From the IMG/VR virus record IMGVR_UViG_3300045988_081534: a stretch of DNA of 17,976 nucleotides; one strand, 5' to 3'. Shown here piece after piece: positions 4,136-17,976 of this stretch. How positions within the stretch are numbered: position 1 is the first letter of the stretch; each line of letters starts with the position of its first letter. This DNA comes from a virus. The notes below the pieces were generated by a model. It was given only the letters and a program-made list of their open reading frames with translations, was not told where the DNA came from and searched no databases. Made by a program: the position numbers and the translations under genes.

Positions 4136-4191
4136 ACTAACTATAACTTGCCTCTTTTCTGGTAGGGCCGGGGTAGGCCGACCCTACCCCG

Positions 4192-4509: not shown

Positions 4510-4647
4510 TAAATCTGCCTCCTCTTCCGGCGTTAATTGCAGGGCTTTATACCTTGCAATCCGTTCAGCGTCACTAATGCGACTGGATATAATATCACCC
4601 CCATATTATAAGTTAGGGCGGGGATTTTCACCCCGCCCTATACGGGG

Positions 4648-5049
4648 TTACGCCATCTTAAAGAGGGACTTGCCCTTCTTCTCCGTGCAGACTACTCGAC
4701 CATCGAGTTTCAACTGCCGCACAAGAGCGGCGACCTTCTGGTTAGAATAGGCCGTCAGATCAGGAATAGCCTTAAAAATTTCCGTGCAGGTCACGCCATC
4801 GGTATCGGCGTCCAGACCAGCCAGATACTCCATAATCTGCTCCTTAAAGTTTTCGTTCTCCTGCTGGGTGGGAGTCAGCTTCTTGTCACCGCTGGAGCTA
4901 TTCTTCTTACGCAGAAGCTCCAGCTCATGGTCAATGATAGTAATGGCCACCTCGATGGTAGTGCCATACTTTACCTCGCCGTCAGTCAAGAGGGCCTTAA
5001 TGTCCTCAAAACGCTGGGCCTTGGTAATGCGGATTTTCTTCTCGTCCAT
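4648..5049 (-). CDS. hypothetical protein with C-terminal winged-helix-like segment; served by three tandem promoters
   Basis: likely start is the 4th Met (MDEKK...) with AAAGGA 8 nt upstream; TEIFKAIPDLTAYSNQKVAALVRQLKLDGRVV resembles a wH recognition unit; stop TAA followed by hairpin agggcgggg/ccccgccct (4613-4638). Confidence 0.6.
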   Translation of the reverse strand: MDEKKIRITKAQRFEDIKALLTDGEVKYGTTIEVAITIIDHELELLRKKNSSSGDKKLTPTQQENENFKEQIMEYLAGLDADTDGVTCTEIFKAIPDLTAYSNQKVAALVRQLKLDGRVVCTEKKGKSLFKMA

Positions 5050-5097
5050 AATATACATCCTTTCTGGTTTTTAGGACTGTCCTTGTCCTTTGATTAT

Positions 5098-5126
5098 ATT
5101 GTACCACACTATTTGGTACTTGTCAA
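5098..5126 (-). promoter_or_regulatory. promoter P3: TTGACA-17-TGgTACAAT (extended -10)
   Basis: minus strand cctcttgacaagtaccaaatagtgtggtacaatataatc; -35 at 5121-5126, -10 at 5098-5103. Confidence 0.55.
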
Positions 5127-5192
5127 GAGGTTTTTCAAACTTTTTTCAAGAACTTTTGCTCTTTACTTGTTTGCCCTCTCAACCTCCCTTAT

Positions 5193-5221
5193 AGTGTAAC
5201 ACACTTTGGAAAGTTTGTCAA
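5193..5221 (-). promoter_or_regulatory. promoter P2: TTGACA-17-TACACT
   Basis: minus strand gggcttgacaaactttccaaagtgtgttacactataagg. Confidence 0.4.
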
Positions 5222-5269
5222 GCCCTTTTTATTTAATTTTCAAGGTGCATTGCCTTGTTTTCTGTACTT

Positions 5270-5298
5270 ATTATAGCACATCTTCAAAGGCTTGTCAA
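5270..5298 (-). promoter_or_regulatory. promoter P1: TTGACA-17-TATAAT (perfect consensus)
   Basis: minus strand ctcttgacaagcctttgaagatgtgctataataagtac. Confidence 0.55.
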
Positions 5299-5403
5299 GA
5301 GATTCTTGAAAGATTTTTGAGAAATTCGCTGTCGCTGTCTGCCGTTCGTCTCTCTCACTTTCTGAATGTATTTTACCACAAGCAAAAGCAGATTGCAAGC
5401 GTC

Positions 5404-5529
5404 AAATTGCACAAAAAATCGGAATTTTGGGAGAGAGTTTTTGTGCAAAATTCTGCACAAAAACGGGACGAAATTTTTGTGCAACATTACCATTGAAAAA
5501 TTCGGCCCGCGTCAGCCATCCGCGGGCCG
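5404..5529. promoter_or_regulatory. control module upstream of P1-P3: two inverted repeats ATTGCACAAAAA...TTTTTGTGCAA (5404-5452, 5453-5486) and GC palindrome cggcccgcg-N9-cgcgggccg (5503-5529)
   Basis: read from sequence; same TTGCACAA/TTGTGCAA arrangement recurs at 6841,7727,9380,10809,12513. Confidence 0.45.
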
Positions 5530-5554
5530 TCGACCTTTTAGATATAAAAAAAAT

Positions 5555-5576
5555 AAGAGGGCTGTAAAGCCCTCTT
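5555..5576 (-). terminator. rho-independent terminator aagagggc-tgtaaa-gccctctt followed (minus strand) by a T8 run
   Basis: stop codon of 5575..5760 lies inside the 3-prime arm; near-identical copies at 6949-6968 and 7840-7859. Confidence 0.6.
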
Positions 5577-5760
5577 AAATATCAATCATATAACTATAAA
5601 CCATATCCCAAAGCGGCATATCATCCAGAAGGATATTTACAGTCAAAAGTCCGGTTTCTGTCGGCCCATCAACAAACCATCCCAGCCGCTGCATAAGGTG
5701 AATAACCTCATAGACATAATCGGGGTCAAGATGGTTAGTGGTAAACTGTCTTGAAAACAT
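5575..5760 (-). CDS. hypothetical protein, 61 aa
   Basis: SD AAAGGAAAAG upstream of ATG; start lies just after hairpin cgggcggggc/gcccctacccg (5777-5801) that contains the stop codon of the upstream exonuclease gene. Confidence 0.5.
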   Translation of the reverse strand: MFSRQFTTNHLDPDYVYEVIHLMQRLGWFVDGPTETGLLTVNILLDDMPLWDMVYSYMIDI

Positions 5761-5787
5761 TTCTTTTCCTTTCTATCGGGCGGGGCT

Positions 5788-6579
5788 TTAAGCCCCTACC
5801 CGAATTGTCGGATTATTTTTCAAACTTGCGGAAAGTTGACGCTGAAAATCTGTCATAGGCGGAAACTCTCTTTTATTCTCATACAGGGCCTTTCTCATGG
5901 GCTTATGCTGACGCATACAATACCACATGATTTCCGCCTCAATCAGAACATCCTCAAGCCCCGTATGACTTTCTTCAAAATCGGTATTGCCAGAGATAAA
6001 CCGCCACACGATTTCCGCAGTCTTGCGGGGGACACCATTAGCCTGGACATATCCGTTTTCCTGACAGAATTTCTTATAAGTGGGCATATTGCAGATAACA
6101 TCCTGTGTCATCTTCATAATATCCCAAATCTCCACGCTGTCAAACGGGAACCAATAACGCCACTTGGAGTAGGTCACATAACGCTGTGTAACTCTCAAGG
6201 CATTATCGTCAAATCTGGCATTATAAGCCGCAACTTCCTTAATGCCGTATCGCTCAATGGTATTGAGCATAACTTGGCGGATTTCATAAGTGGTAGCCAT
6301 TTTACGAGTGCCGGCCCGCAGTTCCTCAATATAGCGGGGAATTTTCCAATTATAATAAGCAGTCCGCATGAGATCCCGCTCATCGTTGAAAATGTCCCTA
6401 TTTACAAAACTGGCAGTTTCATAAATATTGCCCTTGGTATCCACTACCGCCCATCCGCAATCATAGACAAGAACGCAACTCATATCCATGCGGGCTTTGC
6501 CGTTTTCGTCAGTTTCAGTCAGTGTGTTAGCAGTTTCAGTATCAACCACCAAAACATAGTGTCTACGCTTATCAATCAT
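5788..6579 (-). CDS. DEDDh (DnaQ-like) 3-prime to 5-prime exonuclease, 263 aa
   Basis: ExoI YVLVVDTETAN, ExoII AAYNARFDDNAL, ExoIII HTGLEDVLIEAEIMW; SD AAGGAAG 9 nt upstream; the 250-aa plus-strand ORF 5836..6588 is its antisense shadow. Confidence 0.75.
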   Translation of the reverse strand: MIDKRRHYVLVVDTETANTLTETDENGKARMDMSCVLVYDCGWAVVDTKGNIYETASFVNRDIFNDERDLMRTAYYNWKIPRYIEELRAGTRKMATTYEIRQVMLNTIERYGIKEVAAYNARFDDNALRVTQRYVTYSKWRYWFPFDSVEIWDIMKMTQDVICNMPTYKKFCQENGYVQANGVPRKTAEIVWRFISGNTDFEESHTGLEDVLIEAEIMWYCMRQHKPMRKALYENKREFPPMTDFQRQLSASLKNNPTIRVGA

Positions 6580-6611
6580 AATCTTTGACTTCCTTTCCTC
6601 TTGTTGAGTTT

Positions 6612-6640
6612 ATTATAGCACATACCATGCTTGATGTCAA
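6612..6640 (-). promoter_or_regulatory. perfect consensus promoter TTGACA-17-TATAAT for the exonuclease gene
   Basis: minus strand cttgacatcaagcatggtatgtgctataat. Confidence 0.6.
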
Positions 6641-6804
6641 GAGGAAAAGGAAATTTTTATTGCGATTTACTGCAAGCTACTGGGCATTAGAACGGCCTAT
6701 TCTAACGGCGTTCACTCGACTTACGACACAATATAAATTTACTTCCTTTACTTTCTAAGAGTTCGCGACCTCTTGATTTCTTGGCCTTCCCCTCTTGACA
6801 AATA

Positions 6805-6922
6805 TATAATACCATACTTTCGGGATAATTACAAGATGGCAAATTGCACAAAATTTGCAAGCCAAAATTGTGCAACATCGACAAAAACAAAAACTCGGCT
6901 CGCCGCGTGCGCCAGCGAGCCG
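6805..6922 (-). promoter_or_regulatory. control module: promoter TTGTAA-17-TATTAT (6805-6833), inverted repeat AAATTGCACAAAA...AAAATTGTGCAAC (6841-6876), GC palindrome cggctcgc-N11-gcgagccg (6896-6922); no intact gene follows this promoter
   Basis: read from sequence; downstream of the promoter there is an AAGGAAG SD (about 6736-6742 on the minus strand) but no start codon. Confidence 0.35.
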
Positions 6923-6948
6923 CCCAAACGATATTAAAGAGTAAAAAT

Positions 6949-6968
6949 AAGAGGGCCGAAGCCCTCTT
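6949..6968 (-). terminator. rho-independent terminator aagagggc-cgaa-gccctctt
   Basis: identical stem-loop to 7840-7859; stop of 6967..7155 inside the stem. Confidence 0.6.
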
Positions 6969-7155
6969 AATATCCAAGATATTCTTTATTGATAATCTCG
7001 TCAAGCCAATAGCTCAAATCTTCAAGCGAAATATCGTCATCAATTTCATTGTCGGCCATAGCCTGATCAATTTGACCAATGAGAATGGACGCATTTTTCA
7101 ATACTTGTCGCTCTTCCTCGCTGAGGATAAGCCTATTAACCTTTCTATTCTTCAT
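6967..7155 (-). CDS. hypothetical acidic protein, 62 aa
   Basis: SD AAGGAAG 8 nt upstream; clean ORF to TAA. Confidence 0.5.
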   Translation of the reverse strand: MKNRKVNRLILSEEERQVLKNASILIGQIDQAMADNEIDDDISLEDLSYWLDEIINKEYLGY

Positions 7156-7195
7156 TTACAAAACTTCCTTTCTTATTTTAAGATTGACTGGTGGA

Positions 7196-7660
7196 TTACT
7201 CTACCAGTCGCCATAAGGCCGTAGGTAAATCTTCATGTGGCTCGATTGTTTCCCCTAAATGCCAGCCATCCCGCACACTTTTATTATCATCAATCAAAAT
7301 GAAATTGCTAATTCCCGGCTCAAAGTGTTTCCGCACACAATTTGCTTTTGTTGTGCCATATTCCACAAGGTGGACTTTATGTGCGGGGAAGTTGTATTTT
7401 GCAAGCCAAGTGCGCTTTGCGTCACGAACAGCAGTTTTATATGAGTTAGAACTGTCTTTTGCAAGCCAACTGATAACCCGAATTTCCCAGCCCTGCTCAA
7501 TGAGTTTATTAAGAACGGTATTCAATTCTTCTATATCGCAAAGAGGTTTGGCGACTGTATATGGATAGGGATTTTCATTCATTAAATCTTTTAACCAATC
7601 ATCCACGCCGTACAGGTCAGCGATTGTTCCATCCATATCAAAGCAGAGCATCTTTTTCAT
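7196..7660 (-). CDS. HAD-superfamily 5-prime(3-prime)-deoxyribonucleotidase (NT5C-like)
   Basis: motif I CFDMDGTIADL at N-terminus, C-terminal FILIDDN motif; overall NT5C-like spacing; SD AAGGAAG. Confidence 0.7.
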   Translation of the reverse strand: MKKMLCFDMDGTIADLYGVDDWLKDLMNENPYPYTVAKPLCDIEELNTVLNKLIEQGWEIRVISWLAKDSSNSYKTAVRDAKRTWLAKYNFPAHKVHLVEYGTTKANCVRKHFEPGISNFILIDDNKSVRDGWHLGETIEPHEDLPTALWRLVE

Positions 7661-7692
7661 TTTGATTTACTTCCTTTCTTTAGGTTGATTAA

Positions 7693-7808
7693 AGTATATC
7701 AGATTTCGGGATAGAAAACAAGAGGCAAACTGCACAAAATTTCGGCTGGAAAATTGTGCAACTTCTACAAAAGAGAAAATTCGGCGCGCCACGCACGTTA
7801 GCGCGCCG
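7693..7808 (-). promoter_or_regulatory. control module: promoter TTGTTT-17-TATACT (7693-7721), inverted repeat AAACTGCACAAAAT...AAAATTGTGCAAC (7727-7762), GC palindrome cggcgcgc-N11-gcgcgccg (7782-7808)
   Basis: read from sequence; spacer contains tatcccgaaa as in the 6805-6833 promoter. Confidence 0.4.
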
Positions 7809-7839
7809 CCGAGAAGCCTATTCAAAAAATGGGATAAAA

Positions 7840-7859
7840 AAGAGGGCCGAAGCCCTCTT
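7840..7859 (-). terminator. rho-independent terminator aagagggc-cgaa-gccctctt
   Basis: hairpin plus T-run on the minus strand immediately after the SpoVT-like stop. Confidence 0.6.
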
Positions 7860-8321
7860 TTAACTTTCACATATATTTGCAAGAAATCTTGCAGAAAGTT
7901 TAACCATGTCATGGACAGATTCTTCGTTATTGCTATTTTTATAGCAAATAAAACCAACCTGGTCGCCATTCACAAGAATTGGTGTAATAAACATACTTTC
8001 CCATTTTGTCGCCGAACTGCGAATATCAATCCAGTCATCGGGAACTCTTGTAATTCCAAAGGAACGCGGCCCGCATAAAATTCCATCATTGTCAAAAATA
8101 GCCGCGGCGATTCCGTTAGATGAAAGGGCATTTTGCATTTGTTTAGCGTAAGAGGAAAATTCTCCCATTATAGAATATTTCTTAAAAACTACGCCGCCAT
8201 CTTCTTCAAGAAAAATCTCTAATGGGTCGCCTTCTCTAATATGAAGGTTTCTACGGATTTCCTTTGGAATTACTATCCGGCCCAAATCATCAATACGGCG
8301 CACAATTCCAGTAGCTTTCAT
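7860..8321 (-). CDS. spoVT: SpoVT-like regulator: AbrB-type swapped-hairpin N-domain plus GAF-like C-domain
   Basis: MKATGIVRRIDDLGRIVIPKEIRRNLHIREGDPLEIFLEEDGGVVFKKY is near-canonical AbrB/SpoVT N-domain; C-terminus ...GFICYKNSNNEESVHDMVKLSARFLANICES parallels the SpoVT GAF tail; 153 aa. Confidence 0.8.
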   Translation of the reverse strand: MKATGIVRRIDDLGRIVIPKEIRRNLHIREGDPLEIFLEEDGGVVFKKYSIMGEFSSYAKQMQNALSSNGIAAAIFDNDGILCGPRSFGITRVPDDWIDIRSSATKWESMFITPILVNGDQVGFICYKNSNNEESVHDMVKLSARFLANICES

Positions 8322-8331
8322 TTTTATCTGC

Positions 8332-8362
8332 GGGAGTGCAAGATTTATAGTCTTGCACTCCC
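8332..8362 (-). promoter_or_regulatory. 12-bp-stem hairpin gggagtgcaaga/tcttgcactccc 10 nt upstream of the SpoVT-like start codon; only SD-like GGGAG lies inside the stem
   Basis: read from sequence; sister hairpin at 10422-10452. Confidence 0.45.
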
Positions 8363-8373
8363 TTCCTCCCTTC

Positions 8374-8760
8374 TTAATCCAGTTCTTTCAACATCCGTTC
8401 GAGGTCAGCTTTAGTACCACCCAACTCAAGCGTAAGAATAATTTCCGTTACGGCATTTTTCTCCCAGTCGCTAACTTCCCGCATGGCCTTTTTCTTCTCG
8501 TTCTCCATAGCGGGGTAAATACAATCCTGGCAAGCCTCTACCAGCCGGTCATTATATCTGCGGAAACTCATCCCCTTGTTTTTAACCTCCGAAAGAAGTT
8601 CGTCGTTAAGGGCTTTTACCGCCTGCTTAACTTTCTCCTGCATGATTTTACACTCTGTCTCATAAGCGGAAAAGGTTTCATGGACAGCCTGCCTTTTGAT
8701 TTCAGCCTTTACTCCAACTTCCTTTTCAATATACTCCCGAACAACCTTACTAACACGCAT
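8374..8760 (-). CDS. hypothetical protein, about 128 aa
   Basis: ATG with AAGGAAG 10 nt upstream (track start TTG two codons earlier); charged, helical-looking; conserved Cys pair CQDC. Confidence 0.55.
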   Translation of the reverse strand: MRVSKVVREYIEKEVGVKAEIKRQAVHETFSAYETECKIMQEKVKQAVKALNDELLSEVKNKGMSFRRYNDRLVEACQDCIYPAMENEKKKAMREVSDWEKNAVTEIILTLELGGTKADLERMLKELD

Positions 8761-8822
8761 TTCCAAAACTTCCTTTCTTAATTTTAATTTTTATTTATCG
8801 GGGTCGCCCCTTCCATGGTCTT

Positions 8823-8851
8823 ATTGTACCATAGTTGGGGCGATTTGTCAA
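8823..8851 (-). promoter_or_regulatory. promoter TTGACA-17-TGgTACAAT
   Basis: minus strand ggttgacaaatcgccccaactatggtacaataag. Confidence 0.5.
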
Positions 8852-8855
8852 CCCC

Positions 8856-9008
8856 TTACATCAAAGTTTTTGCAAGATATGCGAACATTAAGATTTCCGC
8901 CGCAAACATGATTTCAAGTCCTATGCAATCTTTTTCAATAGCGGCTACAAATTGCCATACCAGACACAGAACAAAAGCAATCAGAATTATCATGGTAAAA
9001 GTTGTCAT
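8856..9008 (-). CDS. small membrane protein, 50 aa
   Basis: internal start MTTFTMIILIAFVLCLVWQFVAA... with GGGGTGA 5 nt upstream, 4 nt after the TGA stop of the upstream gene; two hydrophobic helices. Confidence 0.5.
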   Translation of the reverse strand: MTTFTMIILIAFVLCLVWQFVAAIEKDCIGLEIMFAAEILMFAYLAKTLM

Positions 9009-9012
9009 ATAC

Positions 9013-9270
9013 TCACCCCGCAAAGGAAACTTCCGCAAAGTTAATATTGAAACGCTCCCATTCGCTTTCCATGCCTAACATCATATCATGGAAAAGGTCA
9101 TCACGATTTTTATATCCATCTTCTTCCAGAATAGCCTCCCATTCTCCATCGTCATATTGATTTTCCAGATAATCCAACGCAGACTTGCGGGCGGCAATGG
9201 TATTAGACGCTACACAGATAGGTTTATCGTCGTATCCATCCGTAACTAAAATCATTTTCTTTTCTTCCAT
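9013..9270 (-). CDS. hypothetical acidic protein, 85 aa
   Basis: SD AAAGGAAAG; clean ORF ending TGA. Confidence 0.55.
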   Translation of the reverse strand: MEEKKMILVTDGYDDKPICVASNTIAARKSALDYLENQYDDGEWEAILEEDGYKNRDDLFHDMMLGMESEWERFNINFAEVSFAG

Positions 9271-9322
9271 GATTTTTCTTTCCTTTCTTTCGAGGTGTTT
9301 CTATCTCCCTCTTTCTGATAAT

Positions 9323-9460
9323 AATATACCACAGGCAAATCAGAAAGTCAAGCGATTTTAGGAAAAAATTCTTCGTCAGATTGCACAACAATTCGAGTCT
9401 AAAATTGTGCAAATTGCCTCTTGATAAAAAATTCCGGCCGCGCCTATAGTGCACGGCCGG
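9323..9460 (-). promoter_or_regulatory. control module: promoter TTGACT-17-TGgTATATT (9323-9351), inverted repeat ATTGCACAAC...AATTGTGCAA with TTCGTCA heptamer (9372-9412), GC palindrome ccggccg-N13-cggccgg (9434-9460)
   Basis: read from sequence. Confidence 0.45.
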
Positions 9461-9478
9461 GCGATCGAATAAAAAAAG

Positions 9479-9500
9479 AACCTCCTGAATTTCAGGAGGT
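9479..9500 (-). terminator. rho-independent terminator acctcctgaa-t-ttcaggaggt preceded by A8 (T-run on the minus strand)
   Basis: 10-bp stem; downstream of the AbrB-like gene. Confidence 0.6.
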
Positions 9501-9542
9501 CATTAATTTCTGCATACCAACAACTCCCTTTCTTTTGAGAAG

Positions 9543-9776
9543 TCAATCGGCATTTTCAACAATCTTTAATCCGTTTGCTTGGATAATTTTCATAGCTTCT
9601 TCAAGCGAGGAATCAACCGATCCGCAGTCGATACAGATATATTTTCTGCCATCTTTTACCATAGTAGTAAAATAGTATTCTTGGCCAGAAACAAGGCCCA
9701 TCTACTCTCGCAGTCTTACTGGAATCATGATACGCCCACTTGAATCTAATTTCCTTGAGAAAGTAGTTTCTTGCAT
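9543..9776 (-). CDS. AbrB/MazE-family swapped-hairpin DNA-binding protein, 77 aa, with one in-frame TAG (9702-9704) read as sense
   Basis: MQETTFSRKLDSSGRIMIPVRLRE-x-MGLVSGQEYYFTTMVKDGRKYICID fits the AbrB N-domain pattern (GRI.IP...R..LG...G......V.DG.I.I) across the TAG; no SD; stop TGA; the plus-strand ORF 9421..9675 overlaps and is rejected. Confidence 0.55.
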
Positions 9777-9864
9777 TTTGATAAATAAATTCTAGTGACC
9801 TAGGCTCGTGCGAAAAACGACTCCATCACGGGAATCGCCGATTTAGAACAATCGGAAGGAACAT

Positions 9865-9981
9865 TTACCACTCGCAAGGCATTTTCTGGCAGAACTGAGA
9901 CATAGGGTAATTTTTACAAGAATCCTAGTTCAAACAGAACTCCAAAATAACCGCGAGTGCTTTCAGCACTTCTAAGGTCAT
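9865..9981 (-). CDS. possible small Cys-rich ORF, 38 aa, one in-frame TAG
   Basis: SD AAAGGAG 8 nt before ATG; MTLEVLKALAVILEFCLN-x-DSCKNYPMSQFCQKMPCEW; weak support. Confidence 0.2.
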
Positions 9982-10014
9982 TAGAAAAACTCCTTTCTTT
10001 ATTTTTCTATAATT

Positions 10015-10072
10015 ATTATAATATATTTTTTTGAAAAAATCAATAGGGCCGGCATTACGCCAGCCCTAATCT
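10015..10072 (-). promoter_or_regulatory. promoter TTGATT-17-TATAAT (10015-10043) preceded by GC hairpin agggctggc-gtaat-gccggccct (about 10050-10072)
   Basis: read from sequence. Confidence 0.4.
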
Positions 10073-10182
10073 CTGTAACCAAACCAGATGGTATTTACCA
10101 ATGTGAAGTAGAACTGTGCCATATCCCTTATTTGTCCAAACAGTGGAACCGATAGGATATGTATGCGGTAAACGCTCAATAC

Positions 10183-10398
10183 TCACTTTAGTTCCACCTC
10201 CTCGAAAGCTCTAATTTTTAGCAGATAATTATATAAGGCTCTATCTTGTTTGTCGCCGGTATTAAAATCAAGAGTACGAACACAGCCGGTAACATTGGAA
10301 TTAAGAGGATGATTCAAACACCAACCAGCCATATTACAAATTGTGTCTCCAAACTCCGCAGATTTTTCTACACTTTCAAATTTAATAACAGCAATCAT
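10183..10398 (-). CDS. hypothetical protein, 71 aa
   Basis: strong SD AGGAGG; preceded by hairpin 10422-10452. Confidence 0.55.
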   Translation of the reverse strand: MIAVIKFESVEKSAEFGDTICNMAGWCLNHPLNSNVTGCVRTLDFNTGDKQDRALYNYLLKIRAFEEVELK

Positions 10399-10421
10399 AT
10401 TTATTCCTCCTTTTTTATCGT

Positions 10422-10452
10422 GGGGAGTGGAGATTTATGGCCTCCACTCCCA
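10422..10452 (-). promoter_or_regulatory. 10-bp-stem hairpin gggagtggag/ctccactccc between two genes, 13 nt upstream of the AGGAGG SD
   Basis: shares GGGAGTG arm and AT-rich loop with the 8332-8362 hairpin. Confidence 0.45.
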
Positions 10453-10461
10453 CAGGTTTTC

Positions 10462-10701
10462 TTAACCATCTACATAAATGATTAGATTGTTGCCTCTTGC
10501 TTGAATACCAGTTACCGGAAGTCCCAGCACCCATTCCTTAGACGCCTCAATGACGTCTCCTCCCAGGGTTATCTTGTGATCAGGTAGCTCATGGTAATGA
10601 GCTTGGGTATTCTCATTGATAATTTCGACCCCTTCCCCGTCAAAGAACATGGTATCTTCTGCGAGCGGAGAAAGCAGACCTGCAATCATTTTCAAAGTCA
10701 T
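10462..10701 (-). CDS. hypothetical protein, 79 aa
   Basis: SD GAAAGGAAG; clean ORF to TAA. Confidence 0.55.
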   Translation of the reverse strand: MTLKMIAGLLSPLAEDTMFFDGEGVEIINENTQAHYHELPDHKITLGGDVIEASKEWVLGLPVTGIQARGNNLIIYVDG

Positions 10702-10755
10702 TTCTTTTACTTCCTTTCAAATTCTTTTTGTGACCTTGCCCCTCTGGACAAGTAT

Positions 10756-10895
10756 ATAATAACACATGACAAGAGGAATGTCAAGTAATTTCGGGAGAAA
10801 ATCTTTCGTCAAATTGCACAGACTTTCGATCATATAATTGTTGAAACTGCCGGATAAATAAAAATTCGGGCCGCGGCGCACGCTGGCGGCCCGGC
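10756..10895 (-). promoter_or_regulatory. control module: promoter TTGACA-17-TATTAT (10756-10784), half-site TTCGTCAAATTGCACAGAC (10809-10825), GC palindrome cgggccgc-N13-gcggcccg (10867-10895)
   Basis: read from sequence. Confidence 0.45.
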
Positions 10896-10926
10896 GAAAA
10901 GTCAATATGGAAAAGTGCATAAAAAT

Positions 10927-10957
10927 GACTGGCAATCTTTGTGCAGATTGCCAGTCA
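10927..10957 (-). terminator. rho-independent terminator gactggcaatc-N9-gattgccagtc preceded by an A-run (T-run on the minus strand)
   Basis: 11-bp stem. Confidence 0.6.
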
Positions 10958-10969
10958 AGTATTATTCCT

Positions 10970-11203
10970 TTACAGCTCCATGGTTTCCATGAGATAGCCC
11001 GTGCCCATCGGCACCTCCCGCAGATTGCTGGGACTTATACGCAACTTATATTTCCTATTGATTTTATTCGCCGCACTTGTCTTATCTCTTGCTTGGACAA
11101 TTACTGGTATATGGAGTTTATTCAGAGTGGGCTTATTAAAACTGAAATATCCCATCTCTCTGCGCTTGCGGCCCATGGCGTCGATATAAGTCCCTCTATA
11201 CAT
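10970..11203 (-). CDS. hypothetical basic protein, 77 aa
   Basis: SD TAGGAGG; clean ORF. Confidence 0.5.
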   Translation of the reverse strand: MYRGTYIDAMGRKRREMGYFSFNKPTLNKLHIPVIVQARDKTSAANKINRKYKLRISPSNLREVPMGTGYLMETMEL

Positions 11204-11216
11204 TTTTTTCCTCCTA

Positions 11217-11369
11217 TTATTTAGTCATGAGAACGAACATATTATATTCGCTGTGCTGTGGGTTTGGCTCACAGTTATCCGCCACTATATCAGCCCAACT
11301 AAGAACTGCCCAGAGTAGGAGAGCGGCACAAATGCCGCCTCCTATCCGCTTAATAATTCTCATTTCCAT
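11217..11369 (-). CDS. small membrane protein, 50 aa; start overlaps the stop of the upstream gene (ATGGAAATGA)
   Basis: MEMRIIKRIGGGICAALLLWAVLSWA... hydrophobic helix; not in the ORF track (below 60 aa). Confidence 0.35.
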   Translation of the reverse strand: MEMRIIKRIGGGICAALLLWAVLSWADIVADNCEPNPQHSEYNMFVLMTK

Positions 11370-11662
11370 TTCTTTGCCTCCTGTTCTTTAACCCATTCAG
11401 TACCGATTGTATCTCCGACCATAGCAACCTTATATTCGTCTTCGCTTGCAATTCTGGTATGCAGATTGCTATTGATAAACTTTCTATTGATATAAGCCCA
11501 GTGTGGCATATAGGCCACTCGCATGGCATTAAAAGCATCCAGGTCTAAGATAATGCCGTCCTCTACCTCTGCGGAACGCACATTCATCTTATACCGCAAA
11601 AGTTTAATAAATTCACGCTTTCTAAAAGTAGGCCCAACGAACCACTTAATATAATTGTTCAT
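11360..11662 (-). CDS. hypothetical protein, 100 aa
   Basis: SD GGGAGAAAGGA; clean ORF. Confidence 0.55.
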   Translation of the reverse strand: MNNYIKWFVGPTFRKREFIKLLRYKMNVRSAEVEDGIILDLDAFNAMRVAYMPHWAYINRKFINSNLHTRIASEDEYKVAMVGDTIGTEWVKEQEAKKWK

Positions 11663-11708
11663 AGTCTTTTATCCTTTCTCCCCGTATAGCCGTTAGGTCA
11701 GCTTCTTT

Positions 11709-11855
11709 TTAATCTACGATTTCTCCACTGGATAAATCCACAATCCAATGATTAGGATTGACTATCTCGTGACTGACCTTCCATCTTGCCATTGAAAGGG
11801 TGGATGGTTCATAATAGCGCATTTTCTCATTGGCTAAAACTTGTAACTGATACAT
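11709..11855 (-). CDS. possible small protein, 48 aa
   Basis: AAGGGG 8 nt before ATG; MYQLQVLANEKMRYYEPSTLSMARWKVSHEIVNPNHWIVDLSSGEIVD. Confidence 0.3.
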   Translation of the reverse strand: MYQLQVLANEKMRYYEPSTLSMARWKVSHEIVNPNHWIVDLSSGEIVD

Positions 11856-11886
11856 ATAGTATGCCCCTTTCTTTTAATTATTATAA

Positions 11887-11918
11887 CCCTGCCTTACCTT
11901 GTGTTTTGCAAGGCAGGG
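11887..11918 (-). other. 9-bp-stem hairpin ccctgcctt/aaggcaggg after the stop of 11930..12304; no T-run
   Basis: read from sequence. Confidence 0.4.
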
Positions 11919-11929
11919 TTTATAAACTG

Positions 11930-12304
11930 TTATCCTCTAATTTCTTCTTCTTGGGTCTTTGTCGCCCAATCAAAAGAGGTACGAACATCGGAAGGTCTGC
12001 GGAATTGCTCTGCTTCGGCCTTTGTCCCGCCTAATGCCATAGCATAGGCTTTCCAGTCAACCGTTCCTTTTGCGGTAGTTTCTTTATATACCACCGCTTT
12101 CGCCTTACCCTGCATTTGTACCGTGCCATATAGATAACTTGTTTTGTCCGTAGCCTTAAAAGCCTTACCTAATCTGGAAAATAGCTCTTTAGCCTTAGCC
12201 TTAGCTGCTTTCTCCGCCGCCTCCGCCGCAGACTTAGCCATCTTAGCGGCCATATACTCCATAATAATGGCTCGATCTTCATTGGTAAAATCAATCTTTT
12301 TCAT
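11930..12304 (-). CDS. hypothetical Ala/Lys-rich protein, about 124 aa
   Basis: start MKKIDF with SD AAAGGGAG; the track ORF extends upstream through the promoter to an unsupported TTG. Confidence 0.55.
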   Translation of the reverse strand: MKKIDFTNEDRAIIMEYMAAKMAKSAAEAAEKAAKAKAKELFSRLGKAFKATDKTSYLYGTVQMQGKAKAVVYKETTAKGTVDWKAYAMALGGTKAEAEQFRRPSDVRTSFDWATKTQEEEIRG

Positions 12305-12356
12305 ACTCTTTTGACTCCCTTTCTTTTTGTGGTGTGGTTCTCTTTTGTTCTGGCTG

Positions 12357-12571
12357 TATTGTATCAAACCTTTAGCAGTTTGTCAATACCTTTTTTGAAA
12401 TTTTTTAATTTTCAAAGTGCCGTGCTTTTGTCTTTGTCCTACTGGACAAGTCCAGTTTACCACCAAAATGTTCACTTGTCAATAGTTTTTTTGAAATTTC
12501 TTTCTCTCTCTTTTGCACAAAATAAATAACATCTTGTTGTGCAGTTTGCATAAACCCTTTACGCGCGCGTA
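12357..12571 (-). promoter_or_regulatory. control module with two tandem promoters (TTGACA-17-TgaTACAAT at 12357-12385; TTGACA-17-TGgTAAACT at 12454-12482), palindrome actggac-aa-gtccagt at 12443-12458, inverted repeat TTTTGCACAAAA...TGTTGTGCAGTTT (12513-12544), GC palindrome tacgcgcgcgta (12560-12571)
   Basis: read from sequence. Confidence 0.45.
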
Positions 12572-12744
12572 TTCCTTTAGGGGCGTGCTTTCTTGCTTTC
12601 GTACTTTAACGAGTGAAAGAGGCCAACTACACTTCAATACTTTACCATGTGAAAGAGGGGCGTGTATTTTGGGAAAAACTGGAAATTTTTTTGTAAAATC
12701 GTTCTGCCACGCCATTTCAAAATCTAAATCGACTTTTCAATCTC

Positions 12745-12785
12745 AATAACGAAAAAGAGAGAAGAACTCACTTCTTCTCTCCGCA
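12745..12785 (-). terminator. rho-independent terminator gagaagaa-ctcac-ttcttctc plus T-run on the minus strand, ending the FolD/PARG/Pth2 operon
   Basis: 8-bp stem; stop codon of 12768..12911 within it. Confidence 0.6.
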
Positions 12786-12911
12786 TTTACACTTCTTTTT
12801 TAAATTATATATAATATGATCTTCTACTTTGTAAATTGGATATAATTCTCCACAGACTGCGCATATATTATAATAATGCTTGCCGTCAAACCATACTAAT
12901 ACTTTATCCAT
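12768..12911 (-). CDS. small zinc-ribbon-like protein, 47 aa
   Basis: MDKVLVWFDGKHYYNICAVCGELYPIYKVEDHIIYNLKKKCKCGEKK with CxxC...CxC; ATG overlaps the stop of the lipoprotein gene (ATGGATAA). Confidence 0.35.
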   Translation of the reverse strand: MDKVLVWFDGKHYYNICAVCGELYPIYKVEDHIIYNLKKKCKCGEKK

Positions 12912-13146
12912 CGTCGGTTGCCTCAAAACTAAAAATCAAATTATATCCATCCTCAGTTTCTATCGTTTCATATCCTTTTAAGATATATCCATCCTCTAGT
13001 TTAATATTAATCGCATCAGATCTCCACATTGTAGGAATATACTCTAGCCTTGGATAACGATTGTTCTCCTCCACGCAAGCAGTCAACAATAGTAAAATCA
13101 AAACTATATTAATTATAAAGCTGATACTTCTTCCCAATTTTGTCAA
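12904..13146 (-). CDS. small secreted lipoprotein, about 80 aa (candidate superinfection-exclusion type)
   Basis: TTG start with GGAGG 9 nt upstream; signal peptide MTKLGRSISFIINIVLILLLLTAC with lipobox LTAC; the track ORF starts at an earlier TTG (13176). Confidence 0.55.
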   Translation of the reverse strand: MTKLGRSISFIINIVLILLLLTACVEENNRYPRLEYIPTMWRSDAINIKLEDGYILKGYETIETEDGYNLIFSFEATDDG

Positions 13147-13546
13147 TTTCTTCCGCCTCCATTGGCCTAAATCCAATACACGTCAAAGTCCCTTCCGGGC
13201 CTTCGCGTTCTAACTCTGTTCTACAAGCATCATAGATAAGCCAATAATCCTTATTCTCTTCCCATCCTAATTCTTCTGCTATCTTAACAGCCTTTAACAA
13301 ATCATTCTTATTCTTCGCTCTACAAACTACTTTGGTCTCCGCTTCCGCTATCCAATTATGGAATAAGTCTCTATCGAGGCTTATTCCTATATGATACATA
13401 AGACCGTCTCTTTCTTTAACAACTTCTTTACTTCCCCAATATAACTTTTCCAAAAGAAAAGCAATAGAAGCATGGGAAACTTGTGCGGCAAGTTTCCCTG
13501 GAGACATATTTAAGTCTCGCCTCGCAATAATTAATTGCTTGAACAT
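13109..13546 (-). CDS. pth2: Pth2-family peptidyl-tRNA hydrolase
   Basis: MFKQLIIARRDLNMSPGKLAAQVSHASIAF... and C-terminal LIYDACRTELEREGPEGTLTCIGFRPM match PTH2 (archaeal/eukaryotic type) motifs; GGAGG SD; start overlaps the PARG-like gene by 16 nt. Confidence 0.75.
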   Translation of the reverse strand: MFKQLIIARRDLNMSPGKLAAQVSHASIAFLLEKLYWGSKEVVKERDGLMYHIGISLDRDLFHNWIAEAETKVVCRAKNKNDLLKAVKIAEELGWEENKDYWLIYDACRTELEREGPEGTLTCIGFRPMEAEEIDKIGKKYQLYN

Positions 13547-14298
13547 TTTTCCAAAACCTCCAAGAAAATTCTAAAATTGCGGGAATTGCGGTTTGGAATC
13601 GCAAAATAGATATTTGGAATATTATAATTGCGGGCTGCGTTTACGAGCAAGGTAGCGACCGTTGATGGATCTTGCATAAAAACACCACAACCCCAGGCTC
13701 CCGCGATTAAATTTTCCACTCCTTTAGCCTCGGCAATTTGATACATAAAATTAATTCTCTCTTCCATTATCCTATTGTTTAGAGAAAGAGGAACTTGCTG
13801 ATAAGTATGTGCTGTTCTATAATTAGGAGAAGCACAAGTAATTACATCAGCTAATTTTCTACTATCGTCTTTTTCAAAGACTACATCAGGAGTATAGATA
13901 GCTCTATCAAGATATAGGGCTCGATTCAGTCTCTGTCTATTCCATGCGTAATAAGTATCATCAAAAGCAAGAAGAATAGGGTAAAGGTTGCTTTCGTGAC
14001 ACAATGCCTCTTCTTGTGCAGAGCTGCCTCCAAGGAAGTAACCACCTGGATGTTTATAGCTTGCATAATTTAAGATCGCAGTCTTGCTCCGATCGGTTAA
14101 ACCGAATAGACAGGATACACTATCTTGGTCTTTAAGATAAAAGGTATTATGGTGGGTTTCTCGCGGTTTTTGCGGAAAAGGAAGATTGGGGCCAAAAATT
14201 TCAGAGTTTATAATTGCGCGATCTGTATCTTCCTTGAGTCTCACTTTAATGTCTGCGTAATGCGATTGCGCGTGTTGTTTGAGCTCTTCTCGTTTCAT
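13531..14298 (-). CDS. bacterial-type PARG-like macrodomain protein (DUF2263/TIGR02452), ADP-ribose glycohydrolase family
   Basis: NYASYKHPGGYFLGGSSAQEEALCHESNLY contains the GGG-X6-8-QEE PARG signature; GAWGCGVF macrodomain motif; SD GGAAGAAAGGA. Confidence 0.75.
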   Translation of the reverse strand: MKREELKQHAQSHYADIKVRLKEDTDRAIINSEIFGPNLPFPQKPRETHHNTFYLKDQDSVSCLFGLTDRSKTAILNYASYKHPGGYFLGGSSAQEEALCHESNLYPILLAFDDTYYAWNRQRLNRALYLDRAIYTPDVVFEKDDSRKLADVITCASPNYRTAHTYQQVPLSLNNRIMEERINFMYQIAEAKGVENLIAGAWGCGVFMQDPSTVATLLVNAARNYNIPNIYFAIPNRNSRNFRIFLEVLEKCSSN

Positions 14299-14342: not shown

Positions 14343-14522
14343 TTAATTATCCCAATCTTCAAATAAAGTGTGTAAACTATTTGTTTCCGCCGCCAATCTC
14401 TTTAAATATTCTTTAAGAATTTTATTTTCTTTAACTTTAATTGCATAATCGCAAGTATTGTCGCAGTCTGGTGTGTACTACCGACCGAATCTATTATAAC
14501 AATAATCAATACAAGGACACAT
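14343..14522 (-). CDS. possible small Cys-rich protein, 59 aa, one in-frame TAG
   Basis: ATG 1 nt after the TAA of the upstream gene; MCPCIDYCYNRFGR-x-YTPDCDNTCDYAIK...; weak support. Confidence 0.25.
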
Positions 14523-14523
14523 T

Positions 14524-14877
14524 TTACTCATATTTACACCCATTCATTCTACAGTCTATCGTGCATTGCCCTGACGCTCCTTCACAAGGAATAGCATCAG
14601 GATAGTATTCAAAATAAGACGAAGTTAATAGAACTTCATATCCAAGTTCCCGCAGTATTCTTTCTGCGACATATCTATCTCTTAATTTAATCCATTCTTC
14701 TCTATTTACTTTTGTTTCTTCATATATTTTTCGAGATTCTTCCATATCTATTGTTATGATACCATCGGTGTTAGTTTTAAATACTGAAGGACTTTGTGTA
14801 TGATAAAATTTTCGAAAGGGATTGTTAATATGAAGAACTTCTTCAGCATATTTGTCAAAATCTCCCGAAAATTTCAT
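14524..14877 (-). CDS. hypothetical protein with Cys-rich C-terminus, 117 aa; ATG overlaps the FolD TAA (TAATG)
   Basis: start MKFSGDFDKY...; the track ORF begins at an upstream Met that lies inside FolD. Confidence 0.5.
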   Translation of the reverse strand: MKFSGDFDKYAEEVLHINNPFRKFYHTQSPSVFKTNTDGIITIDMEESRKIYEETKVNREEWIKLRDRYVAERILRELGYEVLLTSSYFEYYPDAIPCEGASGQCTIDCRMNGCKYE

Positions 14878-15662
14878 TATCTTTGCGCCTGTTTCGCTAA
14901 CTATAAACAATTTTTCATCAACCCCAATCTTGTTAATAGACCTACTCCTCCGGGGACAGGAGTTGACCATACATTATTTCTTTTTGCAATTTCATCAATT
15001 TCTACAAAGTCTCCAAGAGTAATTCCTGCTTCATTTCTGCGAATACCAACATCTATAACAATAGCGTTAGGACAGGCTTCTCTTGTTAAGCTAAATTTTC
15101 CTACCGCAGAGACAATTAAATCTGCTTGCCTTGTTAAATAGAGTTTTGTATTTATATCTGTTTTGCTATGACATACTGATACAGTCATATTTCTATCTAG
15201 TAGAGCTTTAGCCATTGGCTTTCCTACAATGTCGCTTCTTCCCAAAATAACAGCAGATTTACCTTCGTAGTTAAAACCACATTCATCCAAATAGTCTATA
15301 ATTCCTCTTACTGTTGCTGGAGTAATATTGCTCATAGGATTTAAACCATCCGCATCTTTAGAGATAGGTATTTGACTATAATTGAAATCAATTCCATTTG
15401 CTACTGGCATTTGAACTATTACCGCATCCCAGTCTTTCACATGGTCTAAGATCAATCTTAACTCTACTGAACTATTAGCTCTAAACACTTCTGCTTCCCA
15501 ACCAAGAGCGTTAAAGTCTTTTATTTTATTACGAATATAAATTTGATTTGCGGGATCCTAGGCTGTTGCGTCGATAATCATGAGTGATGGAACATTACCA
15601 CTAATCTCCCGCAATTTGTTTACCTATTGTTGAAAATATTCTTTTATATTAATCTATTGCAT
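14877..15662 (-). CDS. folD: bifunctional methylene-THF dehydrogenase / methenyl-THF cyclohydrolase (FolD) homolog with 4 TAG codons read as sense
   Basis: ATVRGIIDYLDECGFNYEGKSAVILGRSDIVGKPMAKALL...TPVPGGVGLLT is canonical FolD; upstream frame PSLMIIDATA-x-DPANQIYIRNKIKDFNALGW matches the FolD N-domain (LAVILVGDDPASQVYVRNK) through TAGs; GGAGG SD 9 nt before ATG 15662; after TAG 14901 the tail LAKQAQR-TAA matches the FolD C-terminal consensus; the track ORF 14901..15488 is a fragment. Confidence 0.75.
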
Positions 15663-15981
15663 CTGGATCAAGCCTCCAAGGATCACTAGTATCGTAATCA
15701 ATCATTTCATAGAAAGATATTTCATTTTCATTAACTTCTAATACCTAGTGAGGAATACACTATACTTCATAATCAAAATCTTTATTAATATGGTAAGAAG
15801 TATATATATGAATAGCAATAGGTCTAGGATCATTAACTCCCTAAATATCCCATAAACTTATTGCTTTATTTTGGAAGATTTCCTAAGCATACTATGGAGA
15901 TATAGCAATACTGATTATTAAGATATTAAAATAATACTATGCTTTTTCCGGTAAATCTAAATATGGTTCGTCAAAGAACAT
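15649..15981 (-). CDS. hypothetical protein, 110 aa, 7 in-frame TAG codons
   Basis: ATG 15981 with GGAG upstream; no TAA/TGA for 333 nt; ends at TAA 14 nt inside FolD; not callable with standard code. Confidence 0.4.
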
Positions 15982-16018
15982 TGGCAAACAAATCTCCTAT
16001 CTTATTTTTTATAATTAT

Positions 16019-16083
16019 ATTATAGCATTTTTAAATAAATTAATCAAATAAGATTTGACAATCTAGTTTTTTTTTGTTATTAT
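16019..16083. promoter_or_regulatory. back-to-back divergent promoters: leftward TTGATT-17-TATAAT (16019-16047) and rightward TTGACA-17-TATTAT (16055-16083)
   Basis: read from sequence; the -35 hexamers are 7 bp apart. Confidence 0.5.
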
Positions 16084-16110
16084 ATGAGTATAAAAGGAGA
16101 TGACAGTATG

Positions 16111-17154
16111 ATAAAATTAGATTATACTATTGAGTCTCCAGAAGAACGGAAGGCGCTTGTCGAAAAAATAATCGCAGAAAATCCGAACTTTAGTTCGAGT
16201 TATTTAGAAATATTAGCAGATTATTTAGTTCTATGTATGGAAAAGCAAGAGAAGAAAGAAAAGAATATATTAACAGATAATAGAATGGCTACTGTTAATA
16301 AAAGAGAATGTTCTTTCGAAGGGCTTGCGTCATAGATGGAAAATGGCGAGGATGGCATTTATGGTTTAATGTCAGAAAATAAAAATGTTATATTTTAGCC
16401 AAAGATTTCTATTACACAGAAAGATTTAGATACTATACCATGTTTAAAATAGTTGAGAGAAACCATTAATGTCTGGGAGGGCGCTTTAAAACGCGCTGCT
16501 GGGACAAAATAGGCATATATGATGAAAAAAGCATTAATAGAGATGCGAAAAGATTAGTATATCATTAAGCAAGCATATTAGAAACCTATTATACCATGTA
16601 AATTAACGAGATCCGTAAGAACTCATATTCCTCTTGATGATTAGAGTTATCTTAATGGACAGGAGGTAGTAGTAAAGGGTATTTCGCTAATGGACGCCAA
16701 TGTTGTTTCTGCTATTTTATGCAATTATTCAAAATTAAAAGAAGATAGTTATGATTAGTTTGAGGGAGATACATGGTATTTAATTCAATCATTTGAAGAA
16801 ATATGTGATAAAGCTCTTAAAGACTTTCCAATCTATTTACGAATTGTTGAACTCAAAATTGATAAAAAGTAGAATAACGAAATATAGGAAATATTAAAAA
16901 ATGAGTTTGGTAAAACATATAGTGTTGAATATATTTCTAGCCTATGGAGAAATAAGATTCCTAAACTCATTGCGGAAGAGGCTTTAGAAGATTTTTTACG
17001 TTGGTAGTATAAACAAAAAGGATACCCAATGAAAAAATGTTCTAAGTGTGGGCAATTAAAGCCAGCCCATAATCAATTCTTTTCAAAGAATAAGACAAGC
17101 AAAGATAACTTATATAGTATCTGTAAGCGCTGTCGCAATAAGAAAAGAGGTTGA
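16111..17154 (+). CDS. hypothetical protein, 347 aa, C-terminal C4 zinc ribbon, 11 in-frame TAG codons
   Basis: AAGGAG 8 nt before ATG 16111; single frame to TGA 17152 with TAG at 16333,16396,16450,16510,16555,16579,16642,16756,16870,16885,17005 and no TAA/TGA; C-term KKCSKCGQLKPAHNQFFSKNKTSKDNLYSICKRC; the track shows only the first 83 aa. Confidence 0.6.
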
Positions 17155-17160: not shown

Positions 17161-17976
17161 ATGAGCCATTATTGTAAAAAATGTGGTAAAACTATGGATG
17201 ATACATAGTTTTATACATCAAAAAATTTAGAGAAGTATCCTCCAGATGGAAAGATGGATATTTGTAAAAAGTGTCTTACTATGCACGTAGATAACTGGGA
17301 TCCAGAAACTTATAAATGGATTTTATAGGAGATTGACGTTCCATATATTAAAGAAGAATGGAATGGTTTATTGGAGAAATATGGAAAAGATCCAAAGAAG
17401 GTTACTGGATTAACTATTATTGGACGCTATTTATCTAAAATGAAATTAAAGCAATGGAATAAATACACTTGGGCAGATACAGAAACGCTAGAGAAAGATT
17501 CCATTGATAAAAAAGTTCTTAATATGAAAGCTCAAGGATTTACAGAAGATGAAATCCAAGAGCAGTTGTCTATTGATAGAACTCCTCCAAAACCAAAAGA
17601 ATTAGAGGATGTTTAGGCCCCTGTAGGAACTCCAGAATATGAAGATCCAGAGGAAGATGATGATTTTGGTGATTAGCTAACCGAAGAAGATAAATTAGTA
17701 TTACGTCTTAAATGGGGCCGCGGATATTCTTGGGAAGAAAGAGTAAGAATGGAGCAGCTTTACAATGATATGATGAGTTCTTATGATATTCAAGGAGCAG
17801 GCCATAAAGATACTCTTATTATGGTATGTAAAGCTAGTTTAAAAGCAAATTAGTTAATTGATGCTGGAGATATTGATGGCTTTTAGAAGATGCAAAAAGC
17901 CTATGATAGTTTAATGAAAAGCGGCAAATTTACGGCTGCTTAGAACAAAGGCGAATCCGGTGAATTTGTAGATTCA
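17161..17976 (+). CDS. hypothetical protein with N-terminal C4 zinc ribbon (YCKKCGK...DGKMDICKKC), at least 271 aa, runs off the window; 7 in-frame TAG
   Basis: AAGAGG SD 10 nt before ATG; TAG at 17206,17326,17614,17668,17848,17881,17938; the track fragment 17371..17616 is internal. Confidence 0.55.

Follow-up and report, generated by a model that had tools for sequence, protein, structure and literature searches.

The Pth2 gene and its product

The stretch of viral DNA analysed here, 17,976 nt of the IMG/VR record IMGVR_UViG_3300045988_081534 (hereafter the window; all window coordinates refer to this whole stretch), carries at positions 13109..13546 on the minus strand a gene for a Pth2-family peptidyl-tRNA hydrolase. 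The reading frame runs from ATG to TAA, encodes 145 amino acids (aa), and contains no in-frame TAG. A GGAGG ribosome-binding site is located at 13557-13561 on the same strand, 10 nt 5' of the ATG and within the 3' end of the preceding gene, which encodes a microbial-type poly(ADP-ribose) glycohydrolase (PARG; 13531..14298, minus strand) and overlaps the Pth2 start by 16 nt. Homologs of the window protein begin at the same MFKQ/MYKQ N-terminus. Truncated homologs of 92-102 aa were also encountered; a TAG within Pth2 was considered as the cause and rejected, as frameshifts and deletions were seen, which are most likely assembly errors. In three loci of a clade of 57% identity (L083, L084, and L086), read-through of TAG lengthens the Pth2 frame to 263 codons with six TAG (about 9929-10717 in L084), which may represent a C-terminal extension or chance read-through into a spacer.

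Residues 2-144 of the window protein span profile positions 1-115 of 115 in the Pfam family PF01981 (PTH2), i.e., the full domain, with an E-value of 1.4e-22 and a score of 80.5 bits for a gathering score of 23. The protein also matches the phage family phrog_1866 (E=7.1e-21, profile positions 9-126 of 126). In sequence searches of the PDB, Pth2 proteins only were found among the matches, namely those of T. acidophilum (PDB code 1RLK), P. horikoshii (1WN2), A. fulgidus (1RZW and 3ERJ), S. solfataricus (1XTY), and M. jannaschii (2ZV3), and human Bit1 (1Q7S). An AlphaFold2 model calculated with 19 homologs in the input has a predicted local distance difference test (pLDDT) value of 88.4 and a predicted template-modelling score (pTM) of 0.82. 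When the model was compared with the PDB by Foldseek, the best 14 matches were all Pth2 structures (E 2e-9 to 2e-5), with target-normalised template-modelling (TM) scores of 0.78-0.83, the NMR model 1RZW excepted.

The archaeal and eukaryotic Pth2 enzymes (1XTY, 3ERJ, 1WN2, 1RLK, and human PTRH2/Bit1 1Q7S) thus have the same PF01981 domain and the same alpha/beta fold as the window protein, and share with it the equivalents of Lys18, Asp86, and Thr90, at a sequence identity of 24-33%. Specifically, Lys18, Asp106, and Thr110 of the window protein align with Lys18, Asp86, and Thr90 of S. solfataricus Pth2, where we take Lys18 and Asp86, with the nearby Thr90, to be active-site residues. Gly17, Lys18, Gln22, His25, Asp106, and Thr110 are invariant in the 19 close homologs, for which the mean column identity is 54%, and the corresponding six residues do not vary in 12 phage Pth2 proteins of only 26-36% identity either. 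With dN/dS values of 0.08-0.12 in comparisons with unsaturated dS, the gene is evidently under purifying selection. The exact reading frame, the full-length Pfam match, the predicted fold, and the conserved residues bear out the Pth2 gene that a first-pass annotation had placed at this position. We infer from the sequence that the protein is enzymatically active, and what is said below of its substrates in vivo and of the timing of its expression is likewise predicted.

Bacterial Pth1 (E. coli Pth, B. subtilis SpoVC) catalyses the same reaction in the same role without any sequence or structural relationship to Pth2, and is a monomer where Pth2 is a homodimer. Unlike the archaeal and eukaryotic enzymes, the window Pth2 comes from a phage of Firmicutes, and its host should already have Pth1.

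TAG reassignment and the tRNA genes of the phage

Translated in the standard code, the window breaks up into a patchwork of short open reading frames (ORFs), and several genes are rebuilt when TAG is taken as a sense codon. On the minus strand, these are the gene for a 110-aa protein (15649-15981; six in-frame TAG) and the gene for FolD, a methylene-tetrahydrofolate dehydrogenase/cyclohydrolase (14877-15662; four in-frame TAG; phrog_7320, E=9e-50), for which a Pfam THF_DHG_CYH match was also obtained on the called FolD gene of locus L001. On the plus strand, they are a sigma-factor-like gene (16084-17154; 11 in-frame TAG; phrog_5767, E=5.6e-39) and a small-terminase-like (TerS-like) gene that is truncated by the window end (17161-17976; eight in-frame TAG; phrog_3314, E=2.8e-45). 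When orthologs from related contigs are aligned by tblastn, TAG in the query is found opposite TAG or, among sense codons, mostly opposite those for Gln: the TAG codons of FolD align with Gln or TAG, and those of the sigma-like gene mostly with Gln. The only in-frame stop codon in the ortholog subjects is TAG. Reassignment of TGA or TAA across the window was rejected, since coherent long ORFs and ortholog support were obtained for TAG alone. Judging from these alignments, the phage decodes TAG as Gln. The first-pass annotation had proposed both that a stop codon is reassigned and that translation depends on amber suppression; the in-frame TAG counts and the pairing with Gln, together with a tRNA(CUA) of the phage's own, uphold both proposals.

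The use of TAG differs strongly between genes. As a share of Gln-type codons, counted over 20-29 orthologs per gene from recoded relatives, TAG amounts to 50% in the sigma-like gene, 38% in the TerS-like gene, and 26% in FolD, but to 1/111 in Pth2 (29 recoded orthologs) and 0/175 in PARG; because the orthologs are non-independent, these shares are given as a trend and no test was applied. PARG, Pth2, and nearly all of the small genes downstream (3480-13100) have no in-frame TAG in the window. A sharp boundary in TAG use falls inside one minus-strand block, with TAG-containing genes at 14524-16008 and an almost TAG-free part at 3480-14298. TAG use in this phage also extends beyond structural or lysis genes. 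Since Pth2 lacks TAG and is encoded in the standard code, it should be translatable before any code switch and producible independently of amber suppression, as would be expected of early genes.

The phage to which the window belongs is an SPbeta-like phage of gut Clostridia, with a genome of ~147 kb and SPbeta-type YonD/YonG-like genes. A clostridial host is pointed to by related Pth2 genes on contigs assigned to Oscillospiraceae, Lachnospiraceae, Christensenella, and Butyrivibrio. The tRNA genes were surveyed by walking along IMG/VR contigs on which this Pth2 is present at 98-100% identity, and these proved to carry a tRNA array with 30 genes or more. A tRNA with the anticodon CTA is located at 17403-17478 in locus L142 (IMGVR_UViG_3300045988_084596, ~84.66 kb), ~41 kb from Pth2. 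This suppressor tRNA(CUA) is characterised by a U1-U72 mismatch and by G73 as the discriminator, and its CCA end is encoded. Between it and the main array, in which tRNA-Gln(UUG) and tRNA-Gln(CUG) are found, lies an AAA-ATPase gene with in-frame TAG. In some strains, the array also includes a transfer-messenger RNA (tmRNA; Rfam RF00023, 114.6 bits) with the tag peptide DNDYFENYLAA, at 18745-19060 in L129, 2025-2340 in L139, and 6675-6990 in L141, all of them contigs with this Pth2. No tmRNA is present at that array position in L130 and L142, and a tRNA-Lys(CTT) is found there in L136 and L137. An Rfam tRNA of 117 nt at 4894-5012 in L139 (49.8 bits) was considered as an odd suppressor, and rejected because ARAGORN identifies it as a tRNA-Lys(CTT) with a 42-nt anticodon-loop insert and a weak anticodon stem; this tRNA could be intron-bearing or degenerate.

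One possible interpretation of these features is that Pth2 is retained specifically because amber suppression raises peptidyl-tRNA drop-off, stalling, and read-through of TAG-ending host genes, and that it would be part of a support kit for the code switch. A TAG-to-Gln genome with its own tRNA(CUA) agrees with this, as does the presence of a tmRNA in some strains, and the TAG-free Pth2 gene resembles the “code change” genes of other recoded phages. In the “code change module” of Jade phages (Borges et al., bioRxiv 10.1101/2021.08.26.457843), translation genes are likewise encoded in the standard code within a recoded phage. That module, however, consists of a suppressor tRNA, an aminoacyl-tRNA synthetase (aaRS), and a release factor next to lysis genes, with no Pth, whereas the window Pth2 lies apart from the suppressor tRNA. 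More generally, the code-change genes named in the main survey of recoded phages are suppressor tRNAs, aaRS, and release factors, with no mention of Pth or tmRNA (bioRxiv 10.1101/2021.08.26.457843). The lack of TAG in Pth2 is moreover unspecific, because nearly all early small genes here are free of TAG. Linkage of Pth2 to a suppressor tRNA is absent from this genome and was seen only in the related lineage L065, where Pth2 is positioned 770 nt 3' of tRNA(CUA) within a tRNA array. With respect to the code-change toolkit, Pth2 therefore has the standard-code encoding in common with its members, but neither the suppressor linkage nor, as described below, a distribution that tracks recoding.

Distribution of Pth2 and its probable role

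The first-pass annotation described Pth2 as unusual in phages, a view that did not survive comparison with deposited genomes. PTH2 has been described across jumbo phages and grouped with genes for RNA repair that act in ribosome rescue when tRNA has been damaged (Iyer et al. 2021, PMC7824862), and it is represented among phage protein families by phrog_1866. A tblastn search of 50,697 phage genomes (INPHARED) identified Pth2 in 33 deposited records, all of 130-595 kb and none of them shown to be recoded, and several already annotated as encoding a peptidyl-tRNA hydrolase. The records include Xanthomonas phages XacN1 and Xoo-sp13, Clostridioides phage phiCD211 and relatives, Sinorhizobium phages phiM12, phiM7, and phiN3, Enterococcus phages EF1, EF5, VRE9, and H1, and Pseudomonas phage Astolliot; no crAss-like phage is among the 33. 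Pth2 of large phages is thus already known, and is found here in a member of a recently described code-15 phage group. The PTH2 genes of jumbo and other large phages (XacN1, phiCD211 gp325, phiM12, and EF1/VRE9) occur in the same kind of tRNA-rich large genome and encode the same invariant residues, at 28-36% identity to the window protein. The window phage differs in that its genome size is below the jumbo threshold, in that it is recoded, and in that its Pth2 has PARG as its neighbour, with no tRNA or RtcB gene adjacent.

By tblastn, the TerS-like protein groups the window phage with phAss-1, Enterococcus phage EF1, and SPbeta-like phages. The 136-kb gut phage phAss-1 (“Caudoviricetes code 15 clade”, PMC10607447) has a TerS-like protein of 34% identity and shares a 58-nt element with the window, to which we return below. 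As in the window phage, TAG is decoded as Gln in phAss-1, and a suppressor tRNA(CUA) and a large tRNA array are present, with three tRNA-Sup-CTA genes and 36 tRNAs (Babkin et al. 2023, PMC10607447). Unlike the window phage, phAss-1 has no Pth2: a six-frame hidden Markov model (HMM) search over 98.4% of its genome gave a best E-value of 1.9, where controls of 29-37% identity score E<=1e-12, and tblastn of the whole phAss-1 record gave no Pth2 match. The monophyletic phAss-1/EF1 group mixes TAG-recoded and standard-code members, and EF1 is listed as unrecoded (Babkin et al. 2023, PMC10607447). In EF1, Pth2 is part of a folate/thymidylate cluster with the gene order ThyA, DHFR, Pth2, FolD, followed by a tRNA array, and is at a distance of ~1.3 kb from FolD and 3.5 kb from the array. 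Because EF1 and the window both have Pth2 near FolD, recoding in this phage group appears to be younger than Pth2.

For a broader comparison, 186 loci with full-length Pth2 were grouped into 43 clusters at 70% identity, referred to here as lineages. Single-protein scans of IMG/VR with the Pth2 of EF1 and of one huge phage gave 1 and 3 loci, and an alignment query was used instead. Clearly TAG-recoded members are found in about five of the 43 lineages (L001, L015, L247, some of L065, and probably L223), and the query's own group accounts for two or three of them; the base rate of recoding in gut phages is 473 of 9,322 genomes (~5%). Among the closest Pth2 lineages (L001-L027 and L087-L088), each of the 29 loci is recoded, as would be expected if Pth2 supports the code switch. 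Of the four uncultured huge phages among the 33 deposited records, three have no multi-TAG ORFs around Pth2, and the fourth, L121 (57% GC), is unsuited to the test.

A distribution that follows recoding, as the first-pass proposal would predict, is thus not seen in this sample: few of the lineages are recoded, dozens of large phages carry Pth2 in the standard code, one of them, EF1, being a relative with Pth2 near FolD, the recoded phAss-1 does without the gene, and crAss-like phages are missing from the 33 INPHARED matches. The distribution of the gene, its neighbourhood, and its ~41-kb separation from the suppressor tRNA leave a specific tie between Pth2 and recoding unsupported. Of the first-pass suggestion that Pth2 recycles tRNA for suppression, a Pth2-family enzyme with the expected recycling chemistry in an amber-suppressing genome is retained, and the specific link to recoding is not. 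We therefore consider it improbable that Pth2 is kept in this phage specifically for amber suppression. A further possibility is that, in the code-15 phages of this group, an old large-phage Pth2 encoded in the standard code was co-opted together with the tmRNA and the tRNA array, and would absorb the peptidyl-tRNA and stalled ribosomes that result from suppressor read-through of TAG stops in host and phage genes, so that the cost of the code switch becomes bearable; we regard this as distinctly improbable.

The interpretation that we favour, with a probability of roughly 60%, is that the window gene encodes a functional Pth2-family hydrolase that belongs to the general translation-upkeep kit of large phages, and that was inherited with a folate/nucleotide gene cluster and predates recoding. 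This kit would comprise tRNA arrays, tmRNA, RNA-repair genes, and Pth2. The most likely role of the enzyme would be to recycle peptidyl-tRNA or N-blocked aminoacyl-tRNA in a tRNA-rich large phage, releasing tRNA that drop-off, ribosome rescue, or attack by the host on tRNA or aminoacyl-tRNA has left in the form of peptidyl-tRNA, and this recycling would coincide with heavy phage-driven protein synthesis. The gene cluster with which Pth2 appears to have been inherited in the phage group, apparently before TAG was recoded, would include FolD. The context in which PTH2 is known from large phages is found here as well, with contigs of a ~147-kb genome that carry at least 30 tRNAs, a tRNA(CUA), and in some strains a tmRNA. 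In phiCD211, Pth2 is located 1.1 kb from RtcB, and in 10 of the 43 lineages a tRNA gene is found <1 kb away from it, Pth2 being in some cases placed within the array, with distances of only 11-66 nt in L065, L112, L119, and L121. A tmRNA is found near Pth2 in two standard-code huge phages (L119 and L122).

Some of the same observations fit a more specialised role in counter-defence, in which Pth2 would mainly reverse host attack on tRNA, acting on N-acetyl-aminoacyl-tRNA produced by GNAT toxins of the TacT/AtaT type, or on peptidyl-tRNA fragments left after anticodon-nuclease cleavage, in concert with RNA repair. That Pth2 counteracts host enzymes attacking tRNA was the alternative offered by the first-pass annotation, and it agrees with the published view of the jumbo-phage gene: PTH2 has been placed there among RNA-repair genes that respond to the cleavage of tRNA (Iyer et al. 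2021, PMC7824862). The proximity of Pth2 to RtcB in phiCD211 is consistent with this, and in the window Pth2 adjoins PARG, an ADP-ribose remover and as such a plausible counter-defence enzyme. Bacterial Pth undoes the acetylation of tRNA by TacT toxins, which makes such a use of Pth2 plausible, and a Pth2 non-homologous to Pth1 would presumably be immune to anything aimed at the host enzyme. However, a search of the window revealed neither an RNA ligase nor Pnkp nor any toxin-related gene, apart from one weak HAD-phosphatase-like match, and in sister lineages PARG has changed its place beside Pth2 or is absent. The chemistry would be the same as that of a general upkeep enzyme, and sequence data cannot tell the two apart. 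We judge a mainly counter-defensive role to be unlikely.

Several observations weigh against a general upkeep role for an orthodox Pth2. The window protein scores below the cut-offs of the NCBIfam archaeal Pth2 equivalogs, with 82.7 bits for a cut-off of 126 in NF003314 and 65.5 bits for a cut-off of 82 in TIGR00283. Compared with the archaeal and eukaryotic enzymes, it has an extra 15-residue beta-hairpin after helix 1 (residues 39-53, with strands at 39-45 and 48-53), at a site where 198-aa relatives carry ~55 more residues, and two further short inserts relative to the archaeal enzymes near residues 95-102 and 113-118. Because of the extra hairpin, the substrate range could differ, and the insert after helix 1 could affect the Pth2 dimer interface. 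The window protein accordingly represents a divergent clade with inserts, for which domain membership is secure and exact functional equivalence is putative. Neither a suppressor tRNA nor any other tRNA gene is found within +-10 kb of Pth2 in this phage, and the proximity of Pth2 to tRNA genes elsewhere is no more than suggestive, given that a sizeable part of such genomes is taken up by tRNA arrays. Furthermore, the lineage sample was seeded from one query and ranked by similarity, which biases it to relatives of the query, and recoding was called from +-10 kb per locus, so that phages that recode only distant late genes may pass as standard.

A tie to recoding, if true, would make Pth2 the first quality-control factor linked to a phage code switch. 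The evidence instead puts Pth2 among the translation-upkeep genes of large phages, whatever their genetic code. The exact window protein was found in 890 blocks of a public assembly index, and what is documented here is a very common gut phage lineage in which TAG-to-Gln recoding, a suppressor tRNA, a tmRNA, and Pth2 are combined. A natural comparison set is provided by EF1, with Pth2 and the standard code, and phAss-1, which is recoded and lacks Pth2.

Gene neighbourhood and repeated intergenic elements

Pth2 is the last sizeable gene of its minus-strand block, in which the order is the 110-aa gene, FolD, one small unknown gene, PARG, and Pth2. The small gene between FolD and PARG was called with 115 aa in L001, and alternative ORFs of 148 and 66 aa are present. 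A sigma-70-like promoter candidate (TTGATT-17-TATAAT with TG) is found at the head of the block at 16019..16047, and a weak one (TACACA-17-GATAAT with TG) at 14346..14374, ~50 nt 5' of PARG, both on the minus strand and both as consensus matches only. The first hairpin resembling an intrinsic terminator 3' of Pth2 is located at 12756..12782 on the minus strand, and has an 11-bp stem followed by a T run.

PARG was identified by matches to Pfam PF10021 (E=3e-26) and TIGR02452 (170.4 bits, cut-off 50), and its translation shows a GG-X8-QEE motif; like Pth2, the gene has no in-frame TAG. The 16-nt overlap and the location of the Pth2 ribosome-binding site inside PARG could suggest that the two proteins share an ADP-ribose-linked or other non-tRNA substrate, or that Pth2 has a non-catalytic role similar to that of human Bit1 in apoptosis signalling. 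PARG-like genes are present within 10 kb of Pth2 also in L016, L020-L022, L085, L098, L102, L114, and L117, and the clade-specific insert in Pth2 could form a new binding surface. However, the pair is not conserved: PARG is directly 5' of Pth2 in the closest lineages only, 3' of it in one sublineage, and missing near Pth2 in most of the group of 58-60% identity and in the 57%-identity clade. An obligate PARG-Pth2 pair was rejected on this ground, the adjacency being rearranged or lost outside the closest lineages. The invariant active-site residues of Pth2 argue for the ancestral chemistry, and we know of no Pth2 that acts on ADP-ribose conjugates. A partnership of this kind, or a non-catalytic Pth2, is hence highly improbable. 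Since the overlap is unconserved, we treat PARG and Pth2 as accessory genes that lie side by side, rather than as a system. In place of PARG, phAss-1 has a NADAR-family protein and NAD-salvage genes (NAMPT, Prs, and nicotinamidase); with PARG here and the NAD genes in phAss-1, functions in ADP-ribose/NAD conflict seem to be a theme of the phage group.

The small genes downstream of Pth2 are arranged as separate cassettes, each equipped with terminators in tandem and with a TTGACA-17-TATAAT promoter close to the consensus. Between the small minus-strand genes at 3700-10900, the spacers contain a repeated composite element, examples of which are found at 5449-5577, 6840-6969, 7726-7859, 9377-9501, and 10810-10957. 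The element is composed of a palindrome (TTGCACAAAATT...AAAATTGTGCAA), a GC-rich hairpin, and a second hairpin (AAGAGGGC..GCCCTCTT), in this order, and the stem of the GC-rich hairpin varies in sequence among copies with pairing kept. When scored on the minus strand, the hairpins qualify as intrinsic terminators in tandem, and are followed by the near-consensus promoters. Counted over the region, there are 25 terminators for 9.3 expected, and 43 promoters for 21.7 expected. The presence of the element accounts for a GC content of 40-48% in the middle of the window, compared with 30% at its ends. AbrB/SpoVT-like regulators are encoded nearby (7860-8321 and 9543-9776), and may have the palindrome as their operator.

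The element shared with phAss-1 is a 58-nt intergenic stretch at 8800-8857 of the window, with 93% identity to an intergenic site of that phage (OQ749652.1, 133521-133579), although proteins of the two phages are just ~34% identical. Read on the minus strand, it consists of TTGACA-17-TACAAT followed by a GGGGCGACCCC hairpin, and similar copies are found at 5097-5126 and 12357-12386. The stretch is probably a conserved early promoter with its leader.

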